Made by a program: the position numbers and the translations under genes. Shown here piece by piece: positions 11,519 through 43,813 of a DNA stretch of 64,000 bases (positions are counted from its first letter, which is position 1; every line of letters begins with the position of its first letter). Origin of the DNA: Candidatus Woesebacteria bacterium (GTDB lineage: Bacteria > Patescibacteriota > Microgenomatia > UBA8517); contig OY970314.1 in the NCBI GenBank assembly GCA_963716475.1, forward strand, positions 74,479 through 138,478, read 5' to 3'. The notes beneath the pieces were generated by a model that made no database searches, was not told where the DNA came from, and was given only the letters and a program-made list of their open reading frames with translations.

Positions 11519-11524
11519 AGCCGT

Positions 11525-11557: not shown

Positions 11558-11563
11558 CCTGAT

Positions 11564-20437: not shown

Positions 20438-20473
20438 TTGACAGGTGTTAGGATGGTTGGTAACAATGAATAT
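20438..20473 (+). promoter_or_regulatory. sigma-70-like promoter upstream of giant gene 2
   Basis: TTGACA (20438) -N17- TAACAAT, then ATG 20474. The ORF track's TTG start at 20438 is this -35 box. Confidence 0.4.
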
Positions 20474-23400
20474 ATGCCCTTTTCCGAAGCTAAAAGAGAA
20501 AAGATCGTTTTATCCGTACTAAAGGATAATATTGCGGTTTCGGAAGTCTCCAGAAACTACTCTGTTGCCCGAAAAACTATTTACTCTTGGATAAAGAGGT
20601 ATAAAAAGGGAAGTCTTGCTCCACTATATACAAAGGGCAGGAAACACCCGGCGGCCGTATACCCGAAAGCCTATTCTTATATAAGTAGATGGGCTGTAGG
20701 GCACCCCAAGTGGGGATGCCGCACTTTGAGTAAAAGATTAAATGAAAAAGGAATCAGCTTGAGCTACGTTCAGGTTAACAGATTGTTGAACACAATCGGA
20801 GCGGAGACTTATGACAGAAGGTTGAATTATGCCAGAAACTTTGCCGGTCCGGGGAGAACCAGGGAGGATGTCAGGCTTGAAATTGTCAAAAAGGCCGTTA
20901 CCGGGAAAATTTCCATTACAACTCTTTCCGAAAACTACAAAGTTGCCCGTAAGACCATATATAAATGGATAGCGAAATACCGGGCCATTGGTAACATTAA
21001 AGATTCGTACGTCGTTGGTGAGGCTCATCCCAAGGCAATCTACCCGAAAATTACGCAGCAAGTACTCGACTTGGTCGTTACAAACCCCGGTTATTCGGTA
21101 CGCACTCTGGCTAAATCATTTCCGGCATCCTCTTGGACCATCTGGAGTATTTTAAATAGAAATAATCTGAATACATATAATTTAAGGCTCGAATATTCCA
21201 GGAATATATCTGAGGCTGCCGAAGAGAAAGTCTCGACAACGGGAGTTTCCGAAAGGATAAGATCTGTTTTTGAAAGCTTTACTCCAAATCTGGCTCCGGC
21301 CCCGCCTCCGGGGAAACGTAAAATCTTCAACTTCTTCATTATTTCAGTCTTCCTCTTATCAATATCCTTAGCAATTTTCTATTGGGGATCCGTAATTGTT
21401 CACGCTCCGAATATTGCCGGGTCCATAGGCATGATTTTTGCAGGCGTCTCACTGTCACTCGGAATGTTTTTCTTCCTTTATTCTCTTAAATACTATATTT
21501 CTACAGCGATAGTGCTTTCATATTCACAGAAAGAGGGCTTAGATGCCTCGAGAGTAAGCGCTACCGGCTTAAACTCAGACCTCAGTAACATTCATCTTGA
21601 ACGGCATCCTTATGTCTCGGTTCATCTGGCTCTCTATAACGAGAAGAATGTGGTGGAAAGACTGATGAAAGCAGCTACTTCTTTCGATTACGACAATTAT
21701 GAAGTAATCATCGCGGATGACTCAACTGATGAAACCACCGACAAAATCAGGGAGTTTCTGAAAACATTCCTTCCTAAAGGTGAATCGCTTCGGCAAACCA
21801 AAGGGGACGGGTGGGCAATGACAGAAGTTGACATAAGGAGCGGGGTTGTCTTTAAACATGTCCATAGAACCACAAGGATGGGTTATAAAGGGGGAGCGCT
21901 GAAGCTTGCCCTTTCTCTTACCGACCCGAAAGCTGAATTTGTTTCTGTCTTTGATGCCGATTTTGTGCCTTACCCAGATTCCCTGATGCTATTTCTTAAA
22001 TACTTCAAACTACAGAATAATGGATCAGAAGACTACAAAACAAGTAATACTGCATCAGTTCAGGGCTATCAGTGGCACGTACTTAATAAATCAGAAAACT
22101 GGATTACTAGGGGAGTCAGAAGTGAGTATGCAGGTAGCTACGTAATAGAAAGAGCCGGAACCGAAATCTACAAAGGCCTAAAGCAAATCTCGGGATCAGT
22201 TTACATGATCAGGCGCGATGTTTTGGAAGGAATAGGTTGGGGTACTTCTATCACTGAGGACTTTGAGCTTACCCTGAAACTCTACGAAAAAGGCTACAAA
22301 GTGGTTTATACGCCGTATATTCAGGCTCCGGCTGAATGCGTATCGACCCTAAGAAGACTTGTCAGACAACGTATGCGTTGGGCGGAAGGACATTCTTTCA
22401 ATGTCAAAAAGATGTTCGCAAAGCTTATGTTCTCTCCAAAACTTTCTTCCGCCGAGAAGTTTGAAACGGTTTATCTTGCCCCTTACTATCTACAGGCATT
22501 ATTCTTCCTCATCGGAACTCTCTCCTGGTTCATTTCGGAAACCATTTTACCCGCCCGCCTTCCTTTCTGGACAGAGCTTTGGGGATGGAGTTTGGTTCTG
22601 ACCAATATGATTTCACTGCCGCTTCTAAACACAGTCGGACTTTTCTTAGAGGAATCGGACAGAAAGGATTACTCGGGTATTCCATCTTTTATAGCTCTTT
22701 CATATATAGTTGTTCCGTTTCAGGCCTATGCGGCTGTAAAAGGCTTTCTGGAGAAGGAGGAAGGACCATGGTTTAGAACTCCGAAAACCGGCCGCATTAC
22801 GGATGTTTTCAAAAGAGGTAAGTTCTACAAATTTATTTCCGGGATCTTGCCGGGGAAGGCTGCCGGTTCTGCCACGAGTTATGATCTAAGTCCTTATCTT
22901 GCCCTGACCTCAGCCAATAATAGATTCAGCTCGTTCTCCATTCAAACAAGAAAAGGCAGAAGGTGGGTGGGAAAACTAATGCTAACCTCAATGCTTATTA
23001 TTTCCAATCTTCTTCTTTCTTTTTCTCCTTATATTGAATCAAGGGACGGCAACAGCCAACCTCCTCCGGGAACAGGTATTCTTATGGATGGCAGTACAAA
23101 AGGATCGGGAGGCAAGGTCAATTTAACTCCTGAGCAGCAGCAGTCTTTGGACAAATCGATTAAAGCGAATAACCAAAAAACAAGCTTTAAACTGGTTAGC
23201 GATGTCTCGGCAGCAGAAATATCCGGAGGCAGTGAGGTGAACACCTCCTTTGATGTTAAAAAGAAAGACCTTGAACTTAGCGGGGGAAATACCACCTTTA
23301 CAACTGATGAAAATCCCCAATTTACCTTAAAGCAGAACGACGGTTTTTGGGAATTTATCAAGAATATTTTCATTAAAGAAAAACCCTTGAAAGATCAGGT

Positions 23401-26400
23401 TGTTGTAACAGTTTTGGACTTAAAAGGTAAGGAGGTGGGAAGCCCGCAGGTGGTAGAAGGTGGAATTGATGATTTAAGTATAAATCTTGACAAAACAACC
23501 CTTACTCCGGGCGGATATACTCTTGAGATCAAAAGTGGGAGTAGCCCCGTTATCACCCAGGATTTCAGTTGGGGAGTGCTGGCAATAAATACCAATAAGT
23601 CGGTATATAGTCCGGGTGAAGACGCCTCCATTTCAATGGGGGTTCTTAATGAAGTTGGAGAAACGCTTTGTAGCGCGGGACTAACGCTTGATATTACAGA
23701 CACGGCAGGCACAGTTACCGCTTTAACCACAAAGGAGGGCACCATTAAAGTCAGCGATGAATGCAGCCTCAAGGGCTTCAGCCTGAAACCCGACTATGAA
23801 GCAGCCTACAAAACAACGGTTGCAGGAAAGTACAGCATGGTTCTGACTGCAGAGACTCTTAACGGCAAATATGTTATCAAGGGTTGGTTTGAGGCAAAAG
23901 ACTCGGTCGATTTTGACGTCGAAACGATTACGGCCTCCAGAATTAATCCGGTTTATGAATACCCGGTTATTTTTATAGTTAAGGCGGGTAAAGACTACAA
24001 TGGCATTGTTGAAGAAAAAGTCCCGGCCGGCTTTGAAATCAGTAAACTCAACGACTTAAAGTTGAATAACTATCTGGATTCTAAAGGGGAAAGTACGGCA
24101 AGCGGTAAACTTCAGGAGACACTGGTTAATGACGGTTCACAGGAGGCGGGACAAAAAACACTCCGTTGGATTGTTGACTGGAAAAAAGACCAGACTTATG
24201 TTCTTGCATACGCTTTTAAAGCGCCGATGGTCAGTCCAGAATTTTATCTACTCGGGCCGCTCTGGATCGGGGCATATGAGGGAGCGGGAGGTTGGCAGAT
24301 AGCCGCGGATAAGGTCCCTGCTGGGATTATTGTCGGTTGGCCGTCAACTGTAGCCTCAATTCCTAATCACTGGAGCAGGGTTTCAGGCGCGGCTCTTGAC
24401 GGGTACTTTTTAAGATCAGTAACAGCAACTGATCCGTCGGGTACTCCCGGAGGAAATGCCAGCCATACTCATTCACCGGCGAGTCATACTCATTCCGTTC
24501 CTGTCCATACACATACAGTTCCCGCTTTTGCCCAATCAACCAATACTTCGGCAACGACGGGTAACTCTACGGGTTCCGCCCGTGATACTCATACTCATGC
24601 GGCATTTAGTTCCGGAAATTCCAACGTAACCGTCAATAATGCCCAGACGGTTCCTTTTGCGGGACTTTCCAATGACCCCGATAATTCAACCGTCATCTGG
24701 ATCCAGTCGGACGGAGACCCGTCTACCGAAATTCCGGTAGGGTCTTATGTTTACTTTGACTCAAACACCATGCCGGGAGCCAACTGGGGTAGAGTAAAGG
24801 GAAATTACTTCCTTAAAGGTGCGGCAACGGGTTTAGGGGGAGGAACCGATACGGTAACAGGTTCCGCAACTCATACCCACGCCGCCTCAGCCGACCATAC
24901 CCATACTGAGGCTGCCCATACCCATTCAGGGAGCTCGGCAGGAGGTTCACTTGCTGTTTCCAGTACGGGAACTGGGTCTTACTCTCCGAGTGGCCATACA
25001 CATACCGTTACCTCAAGCTCCGTTGCGGCAACGGAGGGAGGAGCATCGGTAACCCCGACAGTCGGAGTGGCCGCTCCCTCGGGAGAACCTCCTTGGTACA
25101 AACTTAATATCATTAGTAAGTCTACAGGTGCTAATGAAACTCCTTTAAATGTCATTGCCATGTGGACCGGAACTCTGGCAACAATTCCCGACGGTTGGGT
25201 AATTTGTGACGGAACAAATGGAACTCCAAACCTGGGTACAAACTTTATCAAAGGCGCAAATGCCGACGGGGAGCTCAATACCACCGGGGGTTCCCTTACC
25301 CACACTCATGGGGCAGGCAATACCCATACACATACAATAAATGCTCACGTACACACCTGGACGGTTGGAGCTGCCTCCGGAACCGGTGTTGGATTAACGG
25401 GAAATGGAAGATCAGCCGTGGTCAGTACTCATACACATACCCTCAGCGCTGCGCAAACATCAAGTGGCGGAGGTTCAACAGGAACGGCAACTATTACGGC
25501 CGACTCGCAATCTAATCTTCCTCTCTACAAAGAGGTTGCCTACATTATGTATATCGGTAAGACTGTTGCCGGTAAAGCCTATTCGGATGAAGCAACCAGT
25601 ATCTGGGCCGGTTGTGACAACTCGACTGCCAGAATAAGTTTGGTAGTTAACGGCGGTACAGCCTCCACAACCTCATGCAGCAGTTCAGACGGATCTTTCA
25701 GTTTCAAGAATGTTACTCACGCGACAGATAATCCAATATCGGTATTTTTTAATACCGCAGGTAGCAATGCCGACAAAGGTGTGGCAGTTACTATCGCCAA
25801 CGATGCCACTACTCCGATTACCCTTAATCCCAGAAAAAATATTGTCTGGATGAGGAGTGAGAAAGCAACACCGACCATTACCAACTCCAATCTGGCTCAT
25901 TGTTATGCCTCAACCCCCGCAAGCTGTGCCAATGTCCCGTATTCTGCTTCGGGAGCCAATATAACCCTAACTACTGGAGTTGAGCTTCATGTAGAAAGCA
26001 GTATGACATATGATCCCGGGGGAACCACTGCAACCACCGGTACCGGAAGTCTGCATGTGGATGACAATGCTGTCGCATACTTGGATACTACTGGCAATAC
26101 CATTGCTAATAATATTTTAGTGGATGCCGGGGCGACCATTCATATTGATGCCAGTACGGCAGTAAACGGGGGAAATATCACGGTTACAGGTAACGGAATA
26201 GTATCTTCAGCCGCCGGAACCGTAACTATGGGGGCAAGCGGAACCATTGGGGGAGGATCAACAGGATCTACCTTCCAGTTAACAGATCTTGTTGTTTCTT
26301 CGGGGACTACAACCCTGGGGACGGATGCCGACAATATACTGGACTTTACCGGGGATATCAACGTTTCGGCCGGAGCCGTGCTTGCCATGAACAATAAAAC

Positions 26401-29400
26401 CGCTAATGTAGACGGAGGAAATCTGACGACAACTTCTACCGGGTCAGTTACCTGTTCAGGTTGTACGACTGGCGGTTTAACAATTTCAGGAGTCGGAACA
26501 ACAAATGGTATAGGCGGGGGAGGTGGAGCTATAACTTTATACAACCTGACACTTGACGGATCAACCAATACCACAACAGTCGGGTCAAGCGCCATTACGG
26601 TAACCAATGATGTAACAATAGGTACGGGAAGAACCCTGTCAGGAGCCGCATCAGGAACAATCTATGTGGGACACAACTGGGCCAACAGCGGCACTTACAA
26701 TGCCAACTCGGGAACTATTAATTTAAATGCAGCAGCCGATACTGTTCAACAGATAACAGGTGCGACCACATTTTATAATTTATATGTAGCTACTGGAGAT
26801 AGGATTATTAAATTTGGTTCATCAACCGCTTTTACCATTGATACCGGAGGAACCTTTACGGCAACAGGGGATTCCTGTTCGGCACTTGTGGTAATCCGTT
26901 CAACCACTTCCGGGAGTGCCGCAACAATTACCAAGACAGGTTCCGTTTCCTTCTCATATATAGATATACAGGATATCAACTTTTCGGCTTCTGCCTCGGC
27001 TTCTAATTCAGTCGATTCCGGAAACAACAGTAGTATCGTCATTGCAGCCAATAGCTGTCTTGGTGCATCAACCAATAACCAAGCCGCAACAGGTCATTCA
27101 TTCCAGAGAAAAGTATTCTATGATTCCGGGAATAATGTCTACTGGGGTTTCTACCATGACGGAACCCAGATCGAAGTCAGGTATTCATCAAATAGTGGCT
27201 CTACTTGGAATGTAGAAAATGACCATCTGGTACAAAATACCAACGACTTTTCCGTCTGGGACCAGACAATCTCCTCCTACTACGTCTTTTTGGCAGCCAA
27301 AAGCAGCGACAGTATTGTCTTAAGAAGAGGAACAATAACTTCAGGTGCAATCTCATGGGACAGTGAAACAACTCCGGTTACAGCCTTTACGGGGACGGGT
27401 TCAGGCGATTCTTATTCCTATCCCTATATCTCTGCCGATTCATCCGGTAATCTCTGGGTGGGAGCCAGATATTTTAACGGATCAAGTTATGTCTACAAAG
27501 CAGTCAAAAGTAACAATGCAGGAAGTGCTACCTGGACAAACGCTGCTTTTACCTGGGGAGATCCTTCTCAAATCTCTAATGATCAAGCCGACCCTAACGT
27601 TTTTGGCAATGTAGTATCCATAGGCTCGCTGAATATGTACGCAACATTCGTAGTAGGTACAACTATCAAAGGCTGTAAATACACCAATTCTCCTCCTGCC
27701 TGGAAGAATTCAGCAGGGACAGATTCATGCGTAACAACCGAGGGTAGTGGCGGCGGGGAGTCAACATATTTTGATAGCTTAAGTACCGGGTTAGTTGCGT
27801 ACTGGAAAATGAATGAAACTTCCTGGACAGGAGCGAGTAACGAGGTGGTTGATTCATCAGGCAACGGTAACAATGGAACTCGTGTAGGCGATGCAACAAC
27901 AACGGCTGCAGGGTTTTATAGGTCAGGAACGTTCGATGGGACGGGAGATAGGGTTTCTGTTCCTGACAAGACAGACTGGACATTATCGTCCGGAATAGAT
28001 CTGACATATTCAACCTGGATTAATTATACCGTATTGCCGGGGAGCACCAATTGGCCTGGTATTGTTGAAGGAGGTGATGATATGTATGGTTTCCAAATGA
28101 ATGGGCCCACTACCGGGAATATAGTTGTAGATTGGTGGGACGGTACTGTTGACCATACATCATCTTCGCAGGCTGTATCTGTCGGTACCTGGTATCATGT
28201 CGTGATAACTTTAGATTTTGGTGTAACTAATGGTTCCCATTGGTATTTTAACGGTAGAGACCTTGGAACTTTTACCGCACAAGATCGCAGTGTAAATCCT
28301 GATGCACTATATATCGGAGGTAGTGTTACCAATCCCGTTTCAAACAACGCTGTTAATGGAAAGATTGACGATCTGAGAATTTATAACAGGCTACTCTCTG
28401 GTGAAGAGGTTGCCAAACTTTATCAATATGCCCCGGATAGAGTCAATATCGACGATGCCAGTGATTTTAATGCTCCGTCCGGTAGACAAGTTGTTAGAGC
28501 GAAAAACGGGGATTTGTATACTTTTGTCAATGATGCGGGGACATGTGGGGTATGGAAGTCAACTGATGGAGCAAGTTGGTCAGAACAGGATAGTACTCAT
28601 CATAAAACTTGTATGAGTTATTCGGGGGTATCAATAGCGATTGATTCAACTGATAAGTTACATCTTTTATACGCTTCAGGATCCAACACCTTACAATATG
28701 ACACGTTTACTGCCGGGGCTTTTTCTATTCTTAATGAAAATATTTATAATGATGTTGGTGGCAATGGGCTAGGGGGTTTTGATATTGCTGTTGATGCAAA
28801 TAATATTCCCCACGTAGTCTATGTATACATAGACACGTTTACCGATAATCAACTTGGTTACGATAACCGTGTAGGTGGCGCTTGGAATGGTTCAGATGCT
28901 AACCCCGATACTGATAGTGTCGGATTGCTGTCTCCAACAATAGAGATTAATGAAACTGGGTATCCGGAAGTCTCATATATAAAGGCTAGTACTGGGGTTT
29001 TAGTGGCTAAGGCGGGAAACGGAAATGACCCCAATTTATGGGCAGGTTATAGTATAGATACGAGCGTTAATGTTACTGGCGGTCAGGGGGGTGCTTCAAT
29101 TGCAGTAGACACCTTGACCGGTAATACGTGGATAGCGTATGTCGACGGGGATAACGATATTTCTTTGGCAAAATATTCAGGGACGGATTATTCCGGATGG
29201 GAGACAGCCGGTAACTGGGCCACCGTGACCAGTAAAAGCGACGATGGGTACGACCCGTCAATTGCCATTACCGGACCTTCCGATATTTATGTTTTTTATC
29301 AGGATGATGGGGTGGCGGATAACGGAACTAATAAAAGGATCTCTTACGATATATATGATTCGATAGGAGAAGATTGGGCCGGGGAAGTTCCCCTACAAAC

Positions 29401-31612
29401 TCCAAGTTCAGGAGATTTTAAAACTGTTAAAGCCAAGTGGAGTTTTGAATGGAATAATTATGGTGCAAACAGGATTGATTATCTTTTCTCCGACGGAACC
29501 GATGTCTTCTGGAGCTATCTATACCTCCGCCGTCAGCCGACCAATATAGATGACGCCTCAAATATGGGAGCTCTTCCGGGAGAAGGCAGGCAGGTGGTGA
29601 GAACGTCAAGCGGGTATCTTTACTCTTTTATTGCCGGGAAAATGTGGAAATCAACCGATGGTGGAGCGACCTGGGCTCAAAAAGGTGCGAGTAAATCAGG
29701 CATTTTTAACACTCTAGCAGTGGGGTCGGATGATACATTACATGTCACCTTTGGGACGAGTACTACAGGTATTTTTTATGATACTTTTTCTACGTCTTCT
29801 GAAGCTTTTGCGGGATTAAATCAATCGATACATGCTTATACTGCAGGAGAGTCTATTGAAGATAGTGTGTCGATGGCATTGGATTCGAATGATATACCGC
29901 ATGTAGTTTATATTTATAACAATTCAGGCGCCACGGATACTTTTTTGATTTATGACAGCAAAGTCGGGGGTTCATGGCATACTCACTACTTGGTTTTGGA
30001 AGATAACGCGACGGGAGGCACAACCGATATTTTTAGCCCCGAAATAACGATTAATGAATCTGATTATCCTGAGGTTGTTGAATATAATGCCATGACCGGA
30101 ACGGTTCGAGGCAAGGCGGCAAATGCCAATGCTGCGACGGCGTTTGCGACCTATGTTATAGATGACAGTGTTGTAGGAACGCCGACTATCGGTATTGATT
30201 CGTCAGGAAATACCTGGGTGGCCTACGCAGACTCGGGAGATAAAATATCACTTGCAAAATACTCGGGCACTGATTTCACAGGCTGGTATACCTCGGGAAA
30301 CTGGGCTGTGAATACAAGTAAAACTCAAAAAGGATATAAACCTTCGATCGTAGTTGACGGAACTAATATTCGTGTTTTATATCAGGACGACCAAAACGAT
30401 ATTGTTTATGACACGTTTAACGGAACAAGTTGGAGCGGGGAGACTCTTCTGGAGGAACATGCAGCCCTGCAGGATGTTAAAGCCAGAGGGAGCTTTCTGA
30501 ATAATTATGATTCAACCGGGGTAGCACAGTTGAAATATAATACCTATTATTTTAATACTTACGATGGCGAACTTGGTGATCCGAATGGCGTATGGGGTAA
30601 TGATGCAAGCGCCTTTGATGGAAATACCGGTACCTCTGCCACTTCCGGCGTAAATGGGTCAACATCAAGTAATTATTTAATGGGTACAGGAACCAGTGCG
30701 CCGGCAAGCGGAGAAACGATCAGTAGTGTTCAGGTAAGATTTTATGGTGGTCAAGTTGTTGATTCTAATACAACGGTATATGCGACAGTTTCTTCTGGCG
30801 GAACAGAAATTGGAACAGCTACTATTTTTAAACTCAATGATCCCGCCTGGAGTGGTTTTGTTACTCTTTCTGCGCCCGGGGGAAGCTGGGACTGGTCTGA
30901 GGTGCAGGGATTAAATGTAAAATTATATGCCACAGGCATAGTGACTGGCTCTGTAGCGGTAAGGAAAGTGGAGATACAGGTCAAATCGACAAGTACAACT
31001 TCTCAGGCAGAAGTTGATTATGTGTATTCTGATGGCACGGATGTGTTTTACAACCGCCTGCTTTTAGGCGGTACCAGCTCAATTTCGGGAACCCAGGATC
31101 CGATTGACGACTTGATCCCCGCTGATATATCTAAAAATATCTCAACAGTTGCCGACGGGAGCGGGAATGTCCACATACTTTATATCAAGGACTCCGCTAC
31201 GGATTATGTAGCTTACAAGAAGTGGAACGGGACAAGCTGGGATGTAAGCCCGACGAGTATTGAATCAAACGCCAACGCAGCCTATCTGACACTATCCCGT
31301 GCCTCGGATACGGGAGATCTCTATGCCCTTTGGATTGACACATCCGCCAATACAATCAGAAAAAGTATATTTACCTCAAGCTGGTCCGGTCCTACCGCCT
31401 GGCAGAATCCGGGTGTAACAATCACAAACCTTTCCTCTTCGTATTCTGCATCCGCAGTATTTTCTGAGTGGACAATCGGAGCCCTTGCTCCTTTTGAAAT
31501 AAATGCTGGCGTGCTTAAAGTTCCAGAATATCTGCTTTTATTCCTACCCCTTGCACCGCTTTTGCCGTTTTTATCAAGAGTTAAGAAGAAAAGGGGAGCT
31601 CTGATTAGGTAG
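20474..31612 (+). CDS. giant multi-domain surface protein 2: HTH repeats + GT2 + ectodomain (His/Thr repeats, beta-helix-like, LamG-like, tandem BNR-like modules) + VPE-type sorting tail
   Basis: About 3712 aa from MPFSEAKREK, by analogy with the gene 1 N-terminus MPTKEKIS. GT2 motifs VHLALYNEKNVVERLMKA, IIADDSTDETT, FDADFVP and QRMRWAEGH, plus WFRTPKTGRITD. LamG-like block (…DDLRIYNRLLSGEEVAKLYQ). BNR/Asp-box WKSTDGGATW. Tail VPEYLLLFLPLAPLLPFLSRVKKKRG. Confidence 0.85.
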   Translation: MPFSEAKREKIVLSVLKDNIAVSEVSRNYSVARKTIYSWIKRYKKGSLAPLYTKGRKHPAAVYPKAYSYISRWAVGHPKWGCRTLSKRLNEKGISLSYVQVNRLLNTIGAETYDRRLNYARNFAGPGRTREDVRLEIVKKAVTGKISITTLSENYKVARKTIYKWIAKYRAIGNIKDSYVVGEAHPKAIYPKITQQVLDLVVTNPGYSVRTLAKSFPASSWTIWSILNRNNLNTYNLRLEYSRNISEAAEEKVSTTGVSERIRSVFESFTPNLAPAPPPGKRKIFNFFIISVFLLSISLAIFYWGSVIVHAPNIAGSIGMIFAGVSLSLGMFFFLYSLKYYISTAIVLSYSQKEGLDASRVSATGLNSDLSNIHLERHPYVSVHLALYNEKNVVERLMKAATSFDYDNYEVIIADDSTDETTDKIREFLKTFLPKGESLRQTKGDGWAMTEVDIRSGVVFKHVHRTTRMGYKGGALKLALSLTDPKAEFVSVFDADFVPYPDSLMLFLKYFKLQNNGSEDYKTSNTASVQGYQWHVLNKSENWITRGVRSEYAGSYVIERAGTEIYKGLKQISGSVYMIRRDVLEGIGWGTSITEDFELTLKLYEKGYKVVYTPYIQAPAECVSTLRRLVRQRMRWAEGHSFNVKKMFAKLMFSPKLSSAEKFETVYLAPYYLQALFFLIGTLSWFISETILPARLPFWTELWGWSLVLTNMISLPLLNTVGLFLEESDRKDYSGIPSFIALSYIVVPFQAYAAVKGFLEKEEGPWFRTPKTGRITDVFKRGKFYKFISGILPGKAAGSATSYDLSPYLALTSANNRFSSFSIQTRKGRRWVGKLMLTSMLIISNLLLSFSPYIESRDGNSQPPPGTGILMDGSTKGSGGKVNLTPEQQQSLDKSIKANNQKTSFKLVSDVSAAEISGGSEVNTSFDVKKKDLELSGGNTTFTTDENPQFTLKQNDGFWEFIKNIFIKEKPLKDQVVVTVLDLKGKEVGSPQVVEGGIDDLSINLDKTTLTPGGYTLEIKSGSSPVITQDFSWGVLAINTNKSVYSPGEDASISMGVLNEVGETLCSAGLTLDITDTAGTVTALTTKEGTIKVSDECSLKGFSLKPDYEAAYKTTVAGKYSMVLTAETLNGKYVIKGWFEAKDSVDFDVETITASRINPVYEYPVIFIVKAGKDYNGIVEEKVPAGFEISKLNDLKLNNYLDSKGESTASGKLQETLVNDGSQEAGQKTLRWIVDWKKDQTYVLAYAFKAPMVSPEFYLLGPLWIGAYEGAGGWQIAADKVPAGIIVGWPSTVASIPNHWSRVSGAALDGYFLRSVTATDPSGTPGGNASHTHSPASHTHSVPVHTHTVPAFAQSTNTSATTGNSTGSARDTHTHAAFSSGNSNVTVNNAQTVPFAGLSNDPDNSTVIWIQSDGDPSTEIPVGSYVYFDSNTMPGANWGRVKGNYFLKGAATGLGGGTDTVTGSATHTHAASADHTHTEAAHTHSGSSAGGSLAVSSTGTGSYSPSGHTHTVTSSSVAATEGGASVTPTVGVAAPSGEPPWYKLNIISKSTGANETPLNVIAMWTGTLATIPDGWVICDGTNGTPNLGTNFIKGANADGELNTTGGSLTHTHGAGNTHTHTINAHVHTWTVGAASGTGVGLTGNGRSAVVSTHTHTLSAAQTSSGGGSTGTATITADSQSNLPLYKEVAYIMYIGKTVAGKAYSDEATSIWAGCDNSTARISLVVNGGTASTTSCSSSDGSFSFKNVTHATDNPISVFFNTAGSNADKGVAVTIANDATTPITLNPRKNIVWMRSEKATPTITNSNLAHCYASTPASCANVPYSASGANITLTTGVELHVESSMTYDPGGTTATTGTGSLHVDDNAVAYLDTTGNTIANNILVDAGATIHIDASTAVNGGNITVTGNGIVSSAAGTVTMGASGTIGGGSTGSTFQLTDLVVSSGTTTLGTDADNILDFTGDINVSAGAVLAMNNKTANVDGGNLTTTSTGSVTCSGCTTGGLTISGVGTTNGIGGGGGAITLYNLTLDGSTNTTTVGSSAITVTNDVTIGTGRTLSGAASGTIYVGHNWANSGTYNANSGTINLNAAADTVQQITGATTFYNLYVATGDRIIKFGSSTAFTIDTGGTFTATGDSCSALVVIRSTTSGSAATITKTGSVSFSYIDIQDINFSASASASNSVDSGNNSSIVIAANSCLGASTNNQAATGHSFQRKVFYDSGNNVYWGFYHDGTQIEVRYSSNSGSTWNVENDHLVQNTNDFSVWDQTISSYYVFLAAKSSDSIVLRRGTITSGAISWDSETTPVTAFTGTGSGDSYSYPYISADSSGNLWVGARYFNGSSYVYKAVKSNNAGSATWTNAAFTWGDPSQISNDQADPNVFGNVVSIGSLNMYATFVVGTTIKGCKYTNSPPAWKNSAGTDSCVTTEGSGGGESTYFDSLSTGLVAYWKMNETSWTGASNEVVDSSGNGNNGTRVGDATTTAAGFYRSGTFDGTGDRVSVPDKTDWTLSSGIDLTYSTWINYTVLPGSTNWPGIVEGGDDMYGFQMNGPTTGNIVVDWWDGTVDHTSSSQAVSVGTWYHVVITLDFGVTNGSHWYFNGRDLGTFTAQDRSVNPDALYIGGSVTNPVSNNAVNGKIDDLRIYNRLLSGEEVAKLYQYAPDRVNIDDASDFNAPSGRQVVRAKNGDLYTFVNDAGTCGVWKSTDGASWSEQDSTHHKTCMSYSGVSIAIDSTDKLHLLYASGSNTLQYDTFTAGAFSILNENIYNDVGGNGLGGFDIAVDANNIPHVVYVYIDTFTDNQLGYDNRVGGAWNGSDANPDTDSVGLLSPTIEINETGYPEVSYIKASTGVLVAKAGNGNDPNLWAGYSIDTSVNVTGGQGGASIAVDTLTGNTWIAYVDGDNDISLAKYSGTDYSGWETAGNWATVTSKSDDGYDPSIAITGPSDIYVFYQDDGVADNGTNKRISYDIYDSIGEDWAGEVPLQTPSSGDFKTVKAKWSFEWNNYGANRIDYLFSDGTDVFWSYLYLRRQPTNIDDASNMGALPGEGRQVVRTSSGYLYSFIAGKMWKSTDGGATWAQKGASKSGIFNTLAVGSDDTLHVTFGTSTTGIFYDTFSTSSEAFAGLNQSIHAYTAGESIEDSVSMALDSNDIPHVVYIYNNSGATDTFLIYDSKVGGSWHTHYLVLEDNATGGTTDIFSPEITINESDYPEVVEYNAMTGTVRGKAANANAATAFATYVIDDSVVGTPTIGIDSSGNTWVAYADSGDKISLAKYSGTDFTGWYTSGNWAVNTSKTQKGYKPSIVVDGTNIRVLYQDDQNDIVYDTFNGTSWSGETLLEEHAALQDVKARGSFLNNYDSTGVAQLKYNTYYFNTYDGELGDPNGVWGNDASAFDGNTGTSATSGVNGSTSSNYLMGTGTSAPASGETISSVQVRFYGGQVVDSNTTVYATVSSGGTEIGTATIFKLNDPAWSGFVTLSAPGGSWDWSEVQGLNVKLYATGIVTGSVAVRKVEIQVKSTSTTSQAEVDYVYSDGTDVFYNRLLLGGTSSISGTQDPIDDLIPADISKNISTVADGSGNVHILYIKDSATDYVAYKKWNGTSWDVSPTSIESNANAAYLTLSRASDTGDLYALWIDTSANTIRKSIFTSSWSGPTAWQNPGVTITNLSSSYSASAVFSEWTIGALAPFEINAGVLKVPEYLLLFLPLAPLLPFLSRVKKKRGALIR
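28442..30560 (+). repeat. intragenic tandem duplication of an about 370-aa BNR/Asp-box-containing module within giant gene 2
   Basis: Module A starts VNIDDASDFNAPSGRQVVRAKNGDLYTF…; module B starts TNIDDASNMGALPGEGRQVVRTSSGYLYSF…. Shared blocks: NIPHVVYVY/DIPHVVYIY, ISLAKYSGTDYSGW/ISLAKYSGTDFTGW, YVFYQDD/RVLYQDD. A third degenerate copy lies near 31080. Confidence 0.7.
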
Positions 31613-31624
31613 TACAATGACATA

Positions 31625-33550
31625 ATGAAAAGAAAATTTAATTTAAATGTTATCGGTAAGATATTTCTTTTGGCTTCGTTTCTAATACCTTTTGTTATTT
31701 ACCTTAAGACGCTTTGCCCGACGCTTTCCTCCTATGCTGATGCGGGAGAGTTCCCGACCTTTGCTTATATAAGCGGTTTTGCCCATCCTCCTGGGTACCC
31801 CCTGTATATTCTGATACTCAAGTTGTTCCTTTTATTGCCGGTCGCGGGGAGTGTTGCCATGAAAGCCAATTTGGCATCGGCATTTATCTCCGCGGCTTGC
31901 GTCGCCCTTACCTATCTTTGGCTGAGAAGACTAAAATTGGAAGAGGGCGTTGCCTTCACAACCTCGCAAATACTGGCCTTTACACCGATTTTTTGGAGAA
32001 ACGCGTTGATTTCCGAGGTCTTCGGTCTTCTGACGTTATTTATTGTTTTAACCAATTACATGTATCTAAGATGGACCGAGACGGGGGAGAAGAGGGACTT
32101 TTATCTTTTTCTTTTCTTTTGCGGTCTTGGCCTTTCCCATCACCAGCTTTTGATGATAGCTCTTGTTCCGCTTTTAGTGCATTTCATTATTACCAAGAAA
32201 TGGAAATTGATTAATTATAAAAATGTAATAATCGGAATAGCTCTGTTTTTGATTGGGTTCTTACCGTATTTATATATATTGTTATATTCTGCACCGCGTT
32301 GGCCTCTAATGAACTGGAACAACCCCAGCAGTTTGGTAGGTCTTAAGGAATTGATCACCCGTTCGACTTATGGCACTTTTACACTGACGAATCAGTATCA
32401 GGCGTCCGATTTAAAGGTACAGGCCTGGGGGATATTAAAGTTGATTTATAGTAATTATTCGCTTTTTGGAATCGTACTTTTTCCTTTCGGATTAATTTAC
32501 CTCCTTCTAAAAAAGAAGTGGGGCATGACCGCAACCAGCCTCTTTGTAATAATTGCTATTTTTCTTTTCTCCCTCTATTCGGGTATGCCGGTTTTGCAGA
32601 ACAGCCAAATACAATATCTGGAGCGTTTTCAACTTGCAAGCACGGCCTTTATGATTCTTATCATTGCCTTTGGAATTTCCTTTTTCAGGGACCTTGTTTT
32701 TTCCATTAAGCCTCTGAGAGTTCCGGTGCTAATTTTGTTCATGCTGATTCCGGCCGGCCTTGTCTATACAAATTACGCAAAAGTGGATCAAAGTAAAAAT
32801 TACTTTGCAGATAACCTTGCGGATGATATTTTTGCTTCCATCCCTAAAGACAGCATTTTTTTGATGGAGGGGGACAATGTCATTAATGATGTTTTTTATA
32901 ACCGCTACGTTTTGGGACAAAGGAAAGACATCATTTTTATCATAGGCGGACTTATGGACGCCCAGAGTCCCTGGTACCTACAGGAACTGAGGCGTTTTTA
33001 TCCGGACCTGGTTCTGCCTGAAGTTACCGACGACAGAACAGACTACTTAGACGCTTTCCTGGCAGAAAATTCGATAAAAAGGCAAATAATCTTGTATTTA
33101 CCCTCGCTTGAAAACGATTTGGGAATATACATCAATAAAGTAAATAGGGGAATTGTCTGGAAATTTGTCAGGGAGGATGAAGAAGTTTATCTGGGTGATG
33201 TTCAGGATGAAATCCTTGCGCTCACCGGTAGCTACAAAAACCTGAAAGGGAGATTAAATTATACGCTCGATTCTCCCGAATACGCTTTATTGAACCTTTA
33301 TACCCAACCTTATATTTATCTGGCTCAGATGAACGATGACGATCCTGTCTTATCAGAAGAGTACTATAAAAAGGCATTGGCAATTACGCCGGATAATTAT
33401 CAGGCTTTGACCGAGATGGGTGATGACTACTTGATGTATGGGGAGTATGAGAAAGCGGTCGCAAGCTGGAAGCAAGCTCTGAATTATATTTACGATAGTG
33501 ATTTGAGGGATGAAGTTTTGGCAAAAATAGACGAATACCAAAACCAGTAA
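31625..33550 (+). CDS. DUF2723/TMTC-like GT-C membrane glycosyltransferase with C-terminal TPR
   Basis: 641 aa. N-terminal signature …YADAGEFPTFAYISGFAHPPGYPLY… (HPPGYPL hallmark of DUF2723 O-mannosyltransferase-like proteins). About 11 TM. C-terminal TPR-like YYKKALAITPDNYQALTEMGDDYLMYGEYEKAVASWKQAL. Confidence 0.7.
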   Translation: MKRKFNLNVIGKIFLLASFLIPFVIYLKTLCPTLSSYADAGEFPTFAYISGFAHPPGYPLYILILKLFLLLPVAGSVAMKANLASAFISAACVALTYLWLRRLKLEEGVAFTTSQILAFTPIFWRNALISEVFGLLTLFIVLTNYMYLRWTETGEKRDFYLFLFFCGLGLSHHQLLMIALVPLLVHFIITKKWKLINYKNVIIGIALFLIGFLPYLYILLYSAPRWPLMNWNNPSSLVGLKELITRSTYGTFTLTNQYQASDLKVQAWGILKLIYSNYSLFGIVLFPFGLIYLLLKKKWGMTATSLFVIIAIFLFSLYSGMPVLQNSQIQYLERFQLASTAFMILIIAFGISFFRDLVFSIKPLRVPVLILFMLIPAGLVYTNYAKVDQSKNYFADNLADDIFASIPKDSIFLMEGDNVINDVFYNRYVLGQRKDIIFIIGGLMDAQSPWYLQELRRFYPDLVLPEVTDDRTDYLDAFLAENSIKRQIILYLPSLENDLGIYINKVNRGIVWKFVREDEEVYLGDVQDEILALTGSYKNLKGRLNYTLDSPEYALLNLYTQPYIYLAQMNDDDPVLSEEYYKKALAITPDNYQALTEMGDDYLMYGEYEKAVASWKQALNYIYDSDLRDEVLAKIDEYQNQ

Positions 33551-33554
33551 GAAA

Positions 33555-34127
33555 ATGAATCAAAAAGCGCTTTTTAAACAAATACTGGCAACCCTTGTAA
33601 TTATATTGGCAGTTTTACCTGTGATTGTGACTTTTTCGGCAGTTTTGACTTCATTTTTCGAAAAAATTAAGCTTTATGTGTGGCTTCAGGATCTGGCTGT
33701 TCCTTTTGAAAGCAGACTGGTTGCGGTTCTAATCCAACTCTTTGGAATCAAAGGAATTATAACCCCCGGCAGCAGTTTTGCCATGGTTTTGCGGACATCC
33801 TCGGGGACTTTTACCCCGGTTGCATTGGAATGGAACTGTTTGGGCTGGCAAAGCCTGATTCTATTGGGTCTTACCCTAATAACAGGCCTCAGGGGAGCTT
33901 ACACGGGTTTAAGTAAAGCCCAGGTTGTTCTTTTCGGAATACTCGGAACTTTTTTATCAAATCTATTCAGGATGGCTTTTATTGTCATTCTGGCTTTTTA
34001 TTGGAATTCATTTGCAGCTATGATTATCCATGATTATTTTGCCAGTTTTGTCGCTATCATCTGGATGTTATTTTTCTGGTGGTTCTCCTACAGGTATATT
34101 TTGGAGGAAAAACCTGCGGGAAACTAA
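33555..34127 (+). CDS. mini exosortase/archaeosortase-like polytopic membrane protein (cassette 2)
   Basis: 190 aa. WNCLGWQ, NLFRMAF and IIHDYF motifs. Paralogue of 19275-19838 and 41283-41888. Confidence 0.7.
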   Translation: MNQKALFKQILATLVIILAVLPVIVTFSAVLTSFFEKIKLYVWLQDLAVPFESRLVAVLIQLFGIKGIITPGSSFAMVLRTSSGTFTPVALEWNCLGWQSLILLGLTLITGLRGAYTGLSKAQVVLFGILGTFLSNLFRMAFIVILAFYWNSFAAMIIHDYFASFVAIIWMLFFWWFSYRYILEEKPAGN

Positions 34128-34435
34128 ACCAATTTTTGCAATTTGAAATCGGGGAAGAGACGCTTTTTAATCAGGATGTCGCTTTCCTCGCCTATTTTAA
34201 TCGCTTCCAGTAAATTCTTCACCCCAGCCAAATTGATGCCCTTATTTTGCGTTAGGTAGCGTACAAATTGGAGTTTATTGATATCCTCAATGGAGAATAG
34301 TCTTCTTTTGGACTCGGATCGGTAGGGAGTAATGAGCCCGAGACTTTCGTAAAGCATAATTGTCCGTGGATGAACTTTCAAAAGTCTCGCAGCTATGGAT
34401 ATAGGCAGAATTGGACTCTCACTAAGCTCAGTCAT
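34124..34435 (-). CDS. MerR-family (HspR-like) transcriptional regulator
   Basis: 103 aa. MerR HTH (…ISIAARLLKVHPRTIMLYESLGLITPYRSESKRRLFSIEDINKLQFVRYL…). Confidence 0.75.
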   Translation of the reverse strand: MTELSESPILPISIAARLLKVHPRTIMLYESLGLITPYRSESKRRLFSIEDINKLQFVRYLTQNKGINLAGVKNLLEAIKIGEESDILIKKRLFPDFKLQKLV

Positions 34436-35012
34436 ATTAATATGATAATAATTAAGTATATTAACCTGAAGATAATACTGTCAAGAGGAAAAAGAAATAA
34501 AATCTATTGTCGATTTTTTATTATAGCCAATACGTTCGATAATTTGATAGGATTAGGGTTCTAATAAAGTATTTACTCAATCGTGAAAAGCTATCAAAGA
34601 AAATAGCAACAACCCTTATAGAACATAATAATACCTATATATATGTATCCTGATCAATATTTTTCAATAATTACCATAAACATATAGGAGAATAACAGAT
34701 GCCGGACGGGCAGAAAGGTTAACATTTGAGGCTGATTTCGGAGTAATAAAATGACTCATATAGCCAGTTCTCTTATAACCAATCGTTATATTTCGAGATA
34801 TTAGTTTAGAAATATCTATATCCTCTAGTAACATAGCTATATTTGAATTGGAAAATATGAGATTTAAACCGTTATTATCAACAGTATTTTAACCCATAGC
34901 CTCTTAAATGAGGATACTATTGACCATTGACAGATGTTACCCACAAGGTGTTAACATAATATATTAGCATCGTTTTCACGGGATTTAGAAACTAATGTGT
35001 TAACACCCTGCC

Positions 35013-38000
35013 ATGACACCTAAGTTATCAAAAGAGGGCCGTTTAAAGCTCATTGAACGCGTTGAAAAAGGCGAATCTGTCGCCAAGCTTTGCGCTGAAG
35101 CAGGAATTTCCCGGGTTCTTTTCTATAGATGGTATAAAAAGTATAAAAAGGGAGGTTTAATTGGCCTTAAACCTGGAGAAGCAGGCAGGCCGCAAACGTT
35201 TCACGCGCCTGAAAAGGGCAGGGTATACACAATTCTTTCACCAAAGGCCAGGAGTTTGATGGTCAAGGAAGTAGTAGAGCAGAATCAGGACGCAACAGAA
35301 GTCGCCGGACGCTATAACGTAAGCCGCGTCACACTATATAAATGGATAGACAGATATAAGGCTGATTTGGCAAAAGGTGTGGAACCGGATATGACCTCAA
35401 GAAAACCGTATGTGGAAAGGTATTTCAGGCAGGTTCCGGAGAAACACGAGCAGGCGGTTTTACAAATAGTAGAACAGCACCCTGAATGGGGTATTAGGAA
35501 AATTGTAGCCAATTTGCCGCAAGTTGCCGGAATCCCCATTATTGGACACCACGGTGTCCAAAACATACTTAACAGGCATAATCTGTCTACTTATGAGGTG
35601 CGCCTTGCCTACGCCAGATCCCGTGTTACTCCTATTACCCAGGGTATTGGTGGGGTACTGGAAAAAGTTACGGAGTTTTTCCAAATTGCTCCCGAAAAAA
35701 GGAAATCCTTTATCAAAAACTTCACCCGCATAAGTTTTGGGCTTTTTTCGCTGGTTGTAGTTCTCGGAGTTGTCAGTTACATTGCACGTTCCTTCTCGCA
35801 GGAGGCAGGAGCTTCACCACTGGGCTTAGGGTTTGCTTTTATAGCCCTTCTAATGGGCACAATATTCCTGTTCTATTCGTTTAAATACTATTTCAGCATT
35901 GCCATGGTGCTTTCATTTTCCCAGAATGAAAGTGGAAGTATTAGAAAGAGGGGGATTGGACTTACTCCAGACCTTTCGCATATAAAGCTTCTGAAAAGAC
36001 CGTATGTTTCGGTGCACATACCTTTTTATAACGAAAAGTATGTAGTTGAGCGTGCCATGGAGGCAGCATCGGGTTTTGATTATCCGGAGTATGAAGTGAT
36101 TCTTTGTGATGATTCTACTGATGAAACAACCAAAATAATCAGTAATTACCTGCATGCTAATGGAAAGAGCATTCAGAAGAAATCTGGAAACGGTTGGGAG
36201 CTTCAATGGACCGAAATAAAACCCGGAGTTACTTTTAAGCATCTTCACAGAACCAGCCGTGGCGGTTACAAAGGAGGAGCATTAAACCTGGCACTAAAAC
36301 TTACCGATCCCAGAACAGAATATGTATCAATTTTTGATGCGGACTTCGTGCCTTACCCGGATACATTGGAACTGTTCCTTAAGTATTTTCAGGTTGAAGG
36401 CAATAGGCCGGAAATCGCCGCGGTTCAGGGATATCAGTGGCACGTACTCAATAAATCCGAAAACTGGATTACCAGGGGAGTCAGAAGCGAATATGCGGGT
36501 TCCTATGTCATAGAAAGGGCAGGAACTGAGATCTACGGTGGTTTAAAGCAGATCTCCGGTTCGGTTTATATGATTAAGAAAGATGTCTTGCAGCAAATCG
36601 ACTGGGGGACTTCTATTACCGAGGATTTTGAACTAACCCTTCGGCTCTACGCTCAGGGCTACAAAGTTCTTTACACTCCCTATATACAGGCTCCGGCGGA
36701 GTGTGTTTCCACAATTAGGCGCTTGGTGCGTCAAAGAATGCGCTGGGCTGAGGGACACTCTGCCAATGTCAGAAAGATGTTCTTGAGGCTTATGAGAAGT
36801 CCCAAGCTTAATGCTACAGAAAAATTTGAATTTGTATATCTTTCACCCTACTACCTCCAGGCATTTTTCTTTTTGGTTGGGACTGTTTGCTGGTTTCTTT
36901 CTGAGGCCGTTTTTAAGGCAAGACTTCCTTTTTGGACTGAGCTTTGGGGTTGGAGTTTGGTATTAACCAACATGATTTCTCTCCCGCTTTTAAACGCGGT
37001 TGGAATGTTTCTCGAGGAAAGTGGGGAAAGGGATTACCTGGGCTTGGCATCATTTGCGGCTTTAAGCTATATCCTGGTGCCTTTCCAGGCATACGCTTCC
37101 GTTAAAGGATTTTTGGAGGATAAAGAAGGCCCCTGGTTTAGAACCCCAAAGACAGGCAGGATCACAGATATATTCAAAAGAGGTAAGTTTTACAGGTTTA
37201 TTTCCGGAATTTTGCCGGGGAAAGCCTCCGAGCCGGCTTCCGCTACCGGAAAACTTCTGCCGGGAGAAGCCCATGACATTGAGGCCAATTATTATTTGAA
37301 CTTAAACTCTGCCAATAATACCTTCAGCAACTTTAAAATTAAATCCAAAAAGGCTTATTGGATTGGGAATGCCGTAATCGGTATTACTGTTGCACTCAGC
37401 GGCTTACTTGTTTATTCCGGTTCGTTGATAAGCAAAGGAACTCTAATGGATTTACCGATTTCAACACGTGTTATTTCCGAAAGCCGTCCCAAGACGTTTC
37501 TTTCCAGACTGGAAATGTTTAAAGTCAAGGAGGTAATGGCCAATACCCTGCCACTACGAAAATCACTTCTGGCTCACGGAGAAAAAACATTGCCCCAACT
37601 CCTGGGAATATGGCCGATATTTATTTTTGCGCTTTTTGTCGCCCTACTTATTATCCTATTTATTAAGAGACGAAGTTTATTCAAGAAGGTGGTTTCGGTT
37701 GGTTTAATTATCTCGCTTGTCGCAAGTTGGCTTTTGTCCGGCTGGCCGGCCATTTGGAATTACCCGAGAATCCCGCCAAAGATCCGGGAAGCAAAGGCTG
37801 CGTTTGACGAGAGAACGGAAACAAACGTACAAGGAGCAAGCCTGAGTAGTCCTTATCAGGCCACTCTTGCTGTTCCTACCGGTACAACTAACGGAGACAT
37901 AATGTTCACTTGGATCGGTTCATATAGTGCTACCGTAACGACCAATGCTGCCTGGACTTTGATTGGAAGCAATACTACTAACAGTGATAAATATTACCTG

Positions 38001-43117: not shown

Positions 43118-43813
43118 ATGAAAATTGCCTTGATTATTCCCACATACAATGAAGCCGAAAATATTGTTAACCTGATACGGGGTGTAAAACTCCGAAATCT
43201 TAATTTAAAAATAATTGTAGTTGATGACGCCTCACCTGACGGTACCGGAAAGAAGGTTTCGAAATTTCCTGAGGTAATATTGATTTCCAGAAAGGGAAAA
43301 CTGGGTCTGGGGTCTGCCTATAAGGAAGGTTTTAAATATGCTTTAAGGCAGGGATATGATGTTATCGGAACAATGGATGCGGACTTTTCCCACGACCCGA
43401 AATTTCTTCCGGAAATGGTAACCGCAATAAAAAGGTGCGACATGGTAATAGGTTCCAGATATGTCAAAGGTGGGAATATAGTCGGTTTTAATTTTTGGAG
43501 AAAATTAATAAGCGGATCGGCGCAGTTCATGTCAAGGAAACTTTTGGGAATAAACGTTAAAGACGCCACAAGCGGTTTTAGATTATATAAAAAAGATGTT
43601 CTTATAACAACCGGTTATGCATCGATTAAGTCCCAGGGGTATTCTTTTTTGATCGAATCTCTATTTTTATCCCTAAAACACGGCTTTAATGTATGTGAAG
43701 TACCAATCGTTTTTGAAAACAGAAGACTGGGAACATCAAAAATATCGGGCTCGGAAATTATAAAGGCCCTATTTACAGTTGTCAGGCTTAAGTATAAATT
43801 TAATTTGGCTTAG
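43118..43813 (+). CDS. polyprenol-phosphate sugar synthase (Dpm1/GtrB-like GT2)
   Basis: IIPTYNEAENI, VVDDASPDGT and GTMDADFSHDP motifs. ATG at 43118; the ORF track begins at a TTG at 43082. Confidence 0.8.
   Translation: MKIALIIPTYNEAENIVNLIRGVKLRNLNLKIIVVDDASPDGTGKKVSKFPEVILISRKGKLGLGSAYKEGFKYALRQGYDVIGTMDADFSHDPKFLPEMVTAIKRCDMVIGSRYVKGGNIVGFNFWRKLISGSAQFMSRKLLGINVKDATSGFRLYKKDVLITTGYASIKSQGYSFLIESLFLSLKHGFNVCEVPIVFENRRLGTSKISGSEIIKALFTVVRLKYKFNLA

Follow-up and report, generated by a model that had tools for sequence, protein, structure and literature searches.

A GT117 (TMEM260-family) glycosyltransferase gene and a candidate acceptor module in a giant surface protein of Candidatus Woesebacteria

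Human TMEM260 (family GT117 of CAZy) is a protein O-mannosyltransferase of the endoplasmic reticulum that modifies the IPT domains of cMET, RON, and plexins; it was recognised as such only in 2023, its mutations cause a human congenital syndrome, and its bacterial relatives have been mentioned only as "distant homologs in bacteria" (PMC10214176). Its cryo-electron microscopy structure, 9rql, shows a GT-C fold with 11 transmembrane helices, a Rossmann-like domain, and a C-terminal TPR domain (bioRxiv 10.64898/2026.03.17.711096). Mutation abolished or strongly lowered the activity of the human enzyme at D52 and H67 of the sugar-recognition motif, at R264 and Y267, which serve the phosphate and the sugar, at R355 in transmembrane helix 10, and at D441, the catalytic base in the Rossmann-like domain (bioRxiv 10.64898/2026.03.17.711096). 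Here we describe a gene for what is almost certainly a bacterial member of this family, located in a 64,000-nucleotide stretch of a Candidatus Woesebacteria bacterium (contig OY970314.1; "the window" below), between giant gene 2, which encodes a very large surface protein, and a gene for a minimal exosortase/archaeosortase (mini-sortase). What is new here is a conserved pairing of the enzyme with a surface-protein module, and the capture of this pair by a sortase-processed giant.

The enzyme, a bacterial relative of TMEM260

The gene and the domains of its product are as follows.

31625..33550, + strand: GT117/TMEM260-family GT-C glycosyltransferase gene, 641 amino acids, ATG start, open reading frame without interruptions
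31625..32785, + strand: membrane domain, residues 1 to 387, about 11 transmembrane helices (AlphaFold2 model; residues mapped from the 9rql alignment)
32804..33184, + strand: extracytoplasmic Rossmann-like domain, residues ~394 to 520, including D417 (five beta strands and flanking helices in the model)
33191..33541, + strand: short C-terminal TPR-like helical domain, residues ~523 to 639 (sub-threshold Pfam TPR, PDB consensus TPR, model)

A preliminary description of the window had pointed out the DUF2723 hallmark of this protein, the motif AGEFPTFAYISGFAHPPGYPLY at residues 40 to 61 (nucleotides 31742 to 31807), and Pfam bears this out: PF11028 (TMEM260-like, formerly DUF2723) matches residues 39 to 195 with an E value of 4.1e-26 and 92.3 bits against a cutoff of 24.2. 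Relatives of the protein are already labelled DUF2723-domain proteins in databases, and with its orthologues it aligns end to end (95 to 100% coverage). A HMMER search of PDB sequences matched the human TMEM260 structures (9rql/9rqm/9rqn; E = 7.6e-37, query residues 19 to 465 versus 33 to 487 of 9rql_A), and hhalign aligned a profile of 23 orthologues with a vertebrate TMEM260 profile at a probability of 100% (E = 1.2e-40, residues 27 to 516 versus 22 to 529), a span that takes in the whole membrane domain and the soluble domain behind it. The AlphaFold2 model of the protein has a pLDDT of 89.1 and a pTM of 0.89. All significant Foldseek matches of the model in PDB, searched with a fold library without 9rql, are GT-C enzymes (PglB, STT3, ArnT, ALG12, ALG9, Pmt4, and AftA), and EmbB is also among the matches.

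The layout of the protein likewise follows that of the human enzyme. A hydropathy scan gave 9 well-separated peaks in residues 1 to 385 (out of 16 overlapping segments), and the model agrees with the roughly 11 helices counted in the preliminary description, the last of them ending at residue 387. The N terminus is predicted to be cytoplasmic, and the active site and C-terminal domains to lie outside the cell, since the N terminus is basic and the number of transmembrane helices is odd. A five-stranded beta/alpha domain is modelled at residues 411 to 514, and its GD motif aligns with human G440-D441. The C-terminal TPR reported earlier also holds: residues 573 to 620 match consensus TPR proteins in PDB (7obi, E = 5e-14) and residues 523 to 639 are modelled as stacked helix pairs, while the several Pfam TPR models that match residues 580 to 620 each score below their own cutoff.

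All six residues found to matter in human TMEM260 are kept in the alignment to 9rql, where D52, H67, R264, Y267, R355, and D441 correspond to D39, H54, R246, Y249, R334, and D417, respectively. D39 and H54, both in the first outer loop of the membrane domain, are equivalents of human donor-binding residues, as are R246, Y249, and R334. D39, H54, R246, R334, and D417 are invariant in the 23 orthologues and Y249 is kept in at least 90% of them; D39, H54, and D417 stay invariant in a wider set with animal, Elusimicrobiota, Armatimonadota, and Geobacter-type homologues. The gene is thus predicted to encode a functional TMEM260-type glycosyltransferase with an intact set of catalytic residues. The window enzyme is about 70 residues shorter than human TMEM260, its TPR domain is shorter, diverged, and does not align, and its sugar carrier would be a bacterial polyprenol instead of dolichol.

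Sequence homology, functional residues, and model layout together place the protein in the TMEM260 family, and neither among the TMTC enzymes nor among the classical PMT enzymes. The preliminary description had called it TMTC/TMEM260-type; the second half of that label stands and the first does not. TMTC1 to TMTC4 (GT105), the cadherin O-mannosyltransferases, also combine a GT-C membrane domain with a TPR region behind it that is lumenal or extracytoplasmic, but they carry a long TPR array where the window enzyme has one short block at residues 573 to 620, and the window enzyme has a Rossmann-like domain between the membrane domain and TPR, as in TMEM260. No TMTC-specific family was among its Pfam matches, and membership in GT105 was rejected. 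The PMT/POMT enzymes (GT39, including actinobacterial Pmt with Ppm1) share with it the GT-C fold and an acidic residue in the first outer loop, and probably also a lipid-phosphate-mannose donor and action on exported, unfolded Ser/Thr-rich proteins; the clan-level model PMT_2 even scores above its Pfam cutoff (38.1 against 26.1). They form another CAZy family, however, and membership in it was rejected as well: PMT itself (PF02366) falls just under its cutoff in the window enzyme (20.6 against 22.7 bits), Pfam gave no MIR match, and the model resembles the folds of PglB, STT3, and ArnT more closely than those of Pmt1, Pmt2, and Pmt4.

Three tandem DUF2723 paralogues were seen in metagenome data on a 146-kb contig (L105, 7468 to 13729) and on a 118-kb contig (L106, 7539 to 13800).

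A surface-protein module that travels with the enzyme

Giant gene 2 and its surroundings contain the following features.

20438..31612, + strand: giant gene 2, 3724 amino acids, with a chassis of helix-turn-helix (HTH) domains, transmembrane helices, and GT2 (residues ~1 to 870), the module, a further ectodomain, and a VPE sorting signal (Pfam HTH_28, Glyco_trans_2_3, Laminin_G_3)
23237..25975, + strand: GT-C-linked module in giant gene 2, candidate acceptor, residues ~934 to 1846 (homology to proteins encoded beside GT-C orthologues)
31514..31612, + strand: C-terminal sorting signal of giant 2, LKVPEYLLLFLPLAPLLPFLSRVKKKRGALIR (layout of VPE, hydrophobic stretch, and basic tail)
33555..34127, + strand: mini exosortase/archaeosortase of cassette 2, 190 amino acids (TIGR04178, 32.2 bits, cutoff 23)

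The GT-C gene lies between giant gene 2 and the mini-sortase gene, as first described, starting 12 nucleotides past the stop of the former and ending 4 nucleotides ahead of the latter. These gaps are the one sign of co-transcription of the three genes; a promoter and terminator scan of 19800 to 35100 gave counts no different from those of shuffled sequence.

What ties the enzyme to giant 2 is the neighbourhood of its orthologues, collected by genomic context look-ups and by a metagenome scan with the orthologue alignment. Thirteen loci were counted, all distinct, with a usable flank and a GT-C protein at least 39% identical to that of the window (L001, L002, L005, L007, L008, L089, L090, L091, L093, L094, L114, L117, and L120). 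In BLAST comparisons, residues ~940 to 1850 of giant 2 match the product encoded just downstream of GT-C in L001, L002, L005, and L007 with 32 to 35% identity (E values of 1e-41 to 1e-60); over all GT-C-adjacent proteins, the identity ranges from 32 to 38% and the E value from 1e-41 to 1e-147. A hidden Markov model of the module found a module gene adjoining the GT-C gene in all 13 loci, immediately downstream in 12 of them (overlapping or less than 10 nucleotides away) and upstream in L008. This pairing is kept among GT-C proteins that are only 39 to 50% identical and in loci whose outer flanks vary, with Tat genes, pilins, dockerin/cohesin genes, and glycoside hydrolases. The module model had no match in 1.23 Mb of control loci, and giants 1 and 3 of the window do not have the module. 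The closest orthologues examined, those of L117 and L120 (47 to 48% identity), have the same arrangement of GT-C and module, and the partner protein of L117 is collinear with residues 917 to 1984 of giant 2 (E = 4e-147), with a weak further match to residue 2067.

The partner proteins range from 833 to more than 3000 amino acids, carry unrelated extensions, and have a membrane anchor at the N terminus, ahead of the module. In giant 2, the module starts about 70 residues past the last transmembrane helix of the chassis (844 to 862), at the same topological position. Given this position and the homology of the module, giant 2 is a chimera that joins the cassette chassis to a surface protein of the GT-C-linked kind. 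The gene order in the window is inverted relative to the other loci, yet the enzyme gene still adjoins the module, and the GC content of the GT-C gene and module, overall and at third codon positions, shows no anomaly against neighbouring genes that would point to a recent foreign origin. No mini-sortase and no chassis-type giant was found in the GT-C orthologue loci.

The first part of the module (residues ~1040 to 1293) is modelled by AlphaFold2 as two tandem Ig-like beta-sandwich domains (pLDDT 83.5), with fold matches to tandem macroglobulin (MG), FnIII, and integrin-type Ig-like domains, so that the candidate acceptor, like the clients of human TMEM260, begins with Ig-like folds. Two invariant Cys residues in this part fit an extracytoplasmic location, and a strand at residues ~1262 to 1274 of giant 2, A-P-x-x-S-P-E-F-Y-L-L-G-P, is nearly invariant. 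The Ig-like part also occurs alone in many surface proteins of Microgenomates, often with M23 peptidase domains. The second part (residues ~1293 to 1710; 24314 to 25567) consists of three tail-collar-like repeats with IPxGW..CDG and GG..HTH..HxH motifs. A 979-amino-acid protein built of the same HxH repeat unit is encoded on a phage-like contig (L115, 8001 to 10940) right after baseplate J and Mu gp48-like genes. Since they occur alone behind baseplate genes, the HxH repeats are a tail-fibre-like, receptor-binding-type module, here embedded in a giant surface protein.

The C-terminal part of the HTH-GT2 chassis also occurs joined to the Ig-like part of the module in fragments of other giants, namely the metagenome proteins P0131, P0133, and P0128; in P0131 there is a further match to the last 160 residues of giant 2.

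In most orthologue loci, the enzyme gene has a different class of giant on its other side. These secreted proteins are very large (up to more than 3200 amino acids) and have a conserved C-terminal domain that ends in [KE]FNWW[IL][IV]; they are encoded upstream of GT-C in L001, L002, L005, L007, L008, L089, L091, L102, L117, and L120, and no open reading frame of this type was found in the window. Giant 2 was considered as their replacement, an idea rejected when BLAST of giant 2 against these proteins gave no match.

Five GT-C orthologue loci also encode a polytopic protein of 625 to 680 amino acids after the module gene (L001, 9042 to 10919; L005, 14705 to 16684; L007, 8293 to 10230; L091, 18342 to 20387; L114, 4189 to 6174). 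Its copies in L001 and L007 match Wzy_C weakly, the annotated copies have TPR matches, and the window has no homologue. The Wzy_C family includes PglL-type O-oligosaccharyltransferases.

Giant and mini-sortase cassettes

The window holds three giants, which share an N-terminal chassis of about 860 amino acids (49 to 59% identity) made up of two transposase-like HTH domains, transmembrane helices, and a cellulose-synthase-like GT2 domain, and which have unrelated ectodomains. All three, as well as homologous giants elsewhere, end in a VPE motif, a hydrophobic stretch, and basic residues. Besides the mini-sortase of cassette 2, two paralogues are encoded at 19275-19838 and 41283-41888; TIGR04178 scores the three at 32.2, 38.3, and 31.6 bits (cutoff 23), and Cys95, Arg139, and His159 are invariant across them. 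By sequence, the mini-sortases and VPE-ended giants qualify as an exosortase/archaeosortase-type system with putative cleavage and anchoring. They share with archaeosortase A/PGF-CTERM and exosortase/PEP-CTERM systems a tripartite C-terminal signal on the cargo (short motif, transmembrane helix, basic tail) and a dedicated membrane transpeptidase-like protein with conserved Cys, Arg, and His; unlike those systems, the sortases are minimal (187 to 201 amino acids) and the cargo has an HTH-GT2 chassis fused to its N terminus. The cargo of archaeosortase A/PGF-CTERM and exosortase/PEP-CTERM is typically glycosylated. Literature searches combining Patescibacteria with exosortase, or archaeosortase with Candidate Phyla Radiation, found nothing on these cassettes.

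Given its place in the cassette, the GT-C gene had been thought to link the sortase-like system to protein O-glycosylation. The chassis alignment was scanned against one genome per GTDB species, giving 78 loci, whose six-frame open reading frames were searched with GT-C, mini-sortase, and chassis profiles. About 25 of the 78 (L011 to L035) are true cassette homologues, from Woesebacteria, Gottesmanbacteria, Chisholmbacteria, other Patescibacteria, and a few Chloroflexota; at least 15 show the end of the giant and a mini-sortase, the latter mostly directly after the giant. None of the ~25 has a DUF2723 gene within 10 kb, and the GT-C profile (E ≤ 1e-5) had no match anywhere in L011 to L088. Cassettes 1 and 3 of the window also lack a GT-C gene. 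The GT117 gene is therefore not a regular part of the giant/mini-sortase cassette, a point of difference from archaeosortase A and exosortase systems. By the criterion that the preliminary description itself had set, a general coupling of sortase-like processing to GT117-type O-glycosylation is refuted, which corrects an attractive generalisation.

Other membrane proteins recur beside the cassettes. A 460-amino-acid polytopic protein encoded at 13846-15228 (+ strand), with 6 hydropathy peaks and no Pfam match, may be GT-C-like; its homologues adjoin cassettes in at least 9 genomes (L011, L013 to L017, L021, L027, and L032; E values of 1e-50 to 1e-121), so that it accompanies cassettes much more regularly than the DUF2723 gene does. 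A 446-amino-acid protein of the window, one of the four polytopic membrane proteins behind the Dpm1-like GT2 gene, has homologues encoded immediately downstream of the mini-sortase in L012 and L032. The gene order in L015 runs giant, sortase, 460-amino-acid homologue, 446-amino-acid homologue, Dpm1-like gene, and PTPS_related-like gene. Cassettes are thus recurrently linked to membrane enzymes of the polyprenyl-phosphate-sugar type, with GT117 not among them. A MerR/HspR-like regulator is encoded at 34124-34435 (− strand), convergent with the end of the mini-sortase gene of cassette 2, and its homologues (48 to 63% identity) adjoin cassettes in L011, L013, L014, L018, and L020.

Donor, acceptor, and rival readings

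Three genes of the window bear on the sugar donor.

43118..43813, + strand: soluble Dpm1-like polyprenyl-phosphate-sugar synthase, 231 amino acids, DAD motif at residues 87 to 89 (PF00535, E = 4.5e-30)
10637-11611, − strand: polyprenyl synthase, lipid-carrier gene (PF00348, E = 2e-47)
11564-12841, + strand: undecaprenyl-diphosphate synthase (UppS) with a C-terminal extension of ~185 amino acids (PF01255, E = 2.5e-72)

The best solved relative of the Dpm1-like GT2 enzyme is the Dol-P-Man synthase of Pyrococcus furiosus (5mlz, E = 8.5e-36, residues 1 to 224), compared with E values of 2e-7 for ArnC and 1e-3 for GtrB. It has no transmembrane segment, and the NCBIfam equivalog models all score below their cutoffs, so its sugar specificity is putative. 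The synthase named in the preliminary description is thus present, without a specific tie to the GT117 gene, and it is a possible, not a specific, supplier of the donor.

We give a probability of roughly 0.6 to the reading that the GT-C protein O-glycosylates the module of giant 2 outside the membrane, with a polyprenyl-phosphate sugar as donor. The membrane domain would bind a polyprenyl-phosphate-hexose on the outer side of the membrane. This hexose may well be mannose, at about even odds, given that the four sugar- and phosphate-contacting residues are kept and that the window encodes a GT2 enzyme like Dol-P-Man synthase together with synthases for the carrier lipid. The TPR domain and the groove of the Rossmann-like domain would hold an extended, freshly exported polypeptide, and D417 would activate a Ser or Thr hydroxyl for the transfer of a single sugar; mannosylation of Ser/Thr would follow the precedent of the human enzyme. 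Because the module starts shortly past the last chassis helix, it would emerge right beside the enzyme. In other Microgenomates, enzyme and module would form a two-gene unit in which the module protein has its own N-terminal anchor, whereas in this genome the module would have been transferred to a VPE-CTERM giant and joined to its HTH-GT2 chassis, the enzyme gene staying between cargo and sortase. Glycosylation and sortase processing would then converge on giant 2 as a trait of one cargo, not of the sortase system. A protein acceptor is likely, and the module of giant 2 has a somewhat better than even chance of being that acceptor. The preliminary description had proposed the giant as the substrate on account of its cassette; giant 2 stands as the most plausible acceptor by virtue of the module adjacency, and cassette membership does not carry the proposal.

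Several observations weigh against this reading. Gene adjacency does not discriminate between a substrate and a partner subunit. In L008 the module is partial, with the HxH repeats and distal part only, and a GT-C clade of 34 to 35% identity has no module neighbour. Where an FNWWI[IV]-ended giant lies upstream, it could equally be the acceptor. The human TMEM260 sequon, P-x5-P-x3-G-P-x2-[GA]-G-G-x2-[ST], has no match in the three giants, either in full or as its core, which limits the transfer of specificity from the human enzyme, the sequon being a trait of the human clients and not of the family; its minimal form [GA]GG..[ST] occurs 3 times against 1.3 expected, not clearly above shuffled sequence. 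The Dpm1-like gene lies 9.5 kb from the GT117 gene in a separate gene string, where polytopic proteins make nearer candidate clients, and no Dpm1-like gene was found near GT-C orthologues elsewhere. A literature search on DUF2723 and GT117 found no functional or biochemical study of a bacterial GT117 member.

The enzyme may instead be a broader O-glycosyltransferase of surface proteins with several exported clients, such as the FNWWI[IV] giants or Ser/Thr-rich stretches, giant 2 being one client or none. The FNWWI[IV]-ended giants upstream of many orthologues and the clade without a module neighbour speak for this, as do the Ser/Thr-rich ectodomains of all three window giants, a property noted earlier for the giant beside the enzyme and moderate in giant 2 (21% overall, up to 33% per 200 residues). 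We consider it rather unlikely, seeing that the module adjacency is kept in the window, where no FNWW-type open reading frame occurs, that the module is the sole neighbour present in 13 of 13 loci, and that human TMEM260 is narrowly protein-specific (PMC10214176). It is unlikely, too, that the acceptor is a lipid or cell-wall glycan, as for the ArnT, Emb, and Aft enzymes, for example a polymer that the giants would produce with their GT2 domain, with the neighbourhood reflecting a shared envelope function. ArnT, AftA, and EmbB are indeed among the fold matches, the giants contain a cellulose-synthase-like GT2 domain, and envelope glycan genes are many in the window; yet it is a protein O-mannosyltransferase to which the enzyme is specifically homologous, D417, which corresponds to the human Asp acting on a peptide Thr, is invariant, a peptide-recruiting TPR domain is kept, and orthologues exist without a nearby GT2 giant.

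Tight and often overlapping gene pairs fit complex subunits as well as they fit an enzyme and its substrate, and the module protein could be a structural or regulatory partner, for example in a complex formed through TPR. This is quite improbable: the partner proteins vary from 833 to more than 3000 amino acids with unrelated extensions, and a module inside a 3724-amino-acid, sortase-destined protein is hard to square with a fixed enzyme subunit. Highly improbable is a role as an integral accessory of the cassette, with cargo O-glycosylation generally coupled to sortase-like processing. The exact placement of the GT-C gene between cargo and sortase would suit it, and polytopic, possibly GT-C-like proteins and Dpm1-like GT2 enzymes do recur beside other cassettes, as in L015, but the cassette survey, cassettes 1 and 3, and orthologue loci free of mini-sortases and chassis-type giants all speak against it.

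If the preferred reading, protein O-glycosylation of the giant 2 module, is taken further, GT117 and the module could be an ancient, dedicated enzyme-substrate pair of Microgenomates for protein-specific O-mannosylation of an adhesin-like module (Ig-like domains and HxH repeats), captured here by a sortase-processed giant, and a prokaryotic counterpart, possibly a forerunner, of the O-mannosylation of Ig-like IPT domains by metazoan TMEM260. A single chain of 3724 amino acids would then combine the roles of glycan synthase, glycoprotein, and sortase cargo. This extension is tentative, and we hold it as doubtful. Because the conserved pairing provides a concrete, clonable candidate substrate, the role of bacterial GT117 enzymes becomes open to experiment. 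It also suggests that ultra-small Patescibacteria glycosylate part of a giant surface protein that is probably adhesive.

The remaining observations concern membrane and envelope genes of the window. An 11-helix membrane protein starts at 43814, directly after the Dpm1-like gene, and polytopic membrane proteins are encoded on the + strand at 43814-45154, 47385-48995, 49791-52790, and 52774-55557; one of the four passes the Pfam PTPS_related cutoff, two are weak matches to this family, and no match was obtained for 47385-48995. Upstream of cassette 1, the stretch from 6865 to 12841 clusters envelope-precursor genes with both the polyprenyl and the undecaprenyl synthase, including a WecG/TagA-type glycosyltransferase (6865-7650) and an amino-acid-kinase-family protein (8664-9491). 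From 55558 to 60615, within the downstream string rich in glycosyltransferases, a methyltransferase gene is interleaved with genes for three radical-SAM proteins, of which two have B12-binding domains, a grouping that suggests unusual methylation of sugars or lipids.

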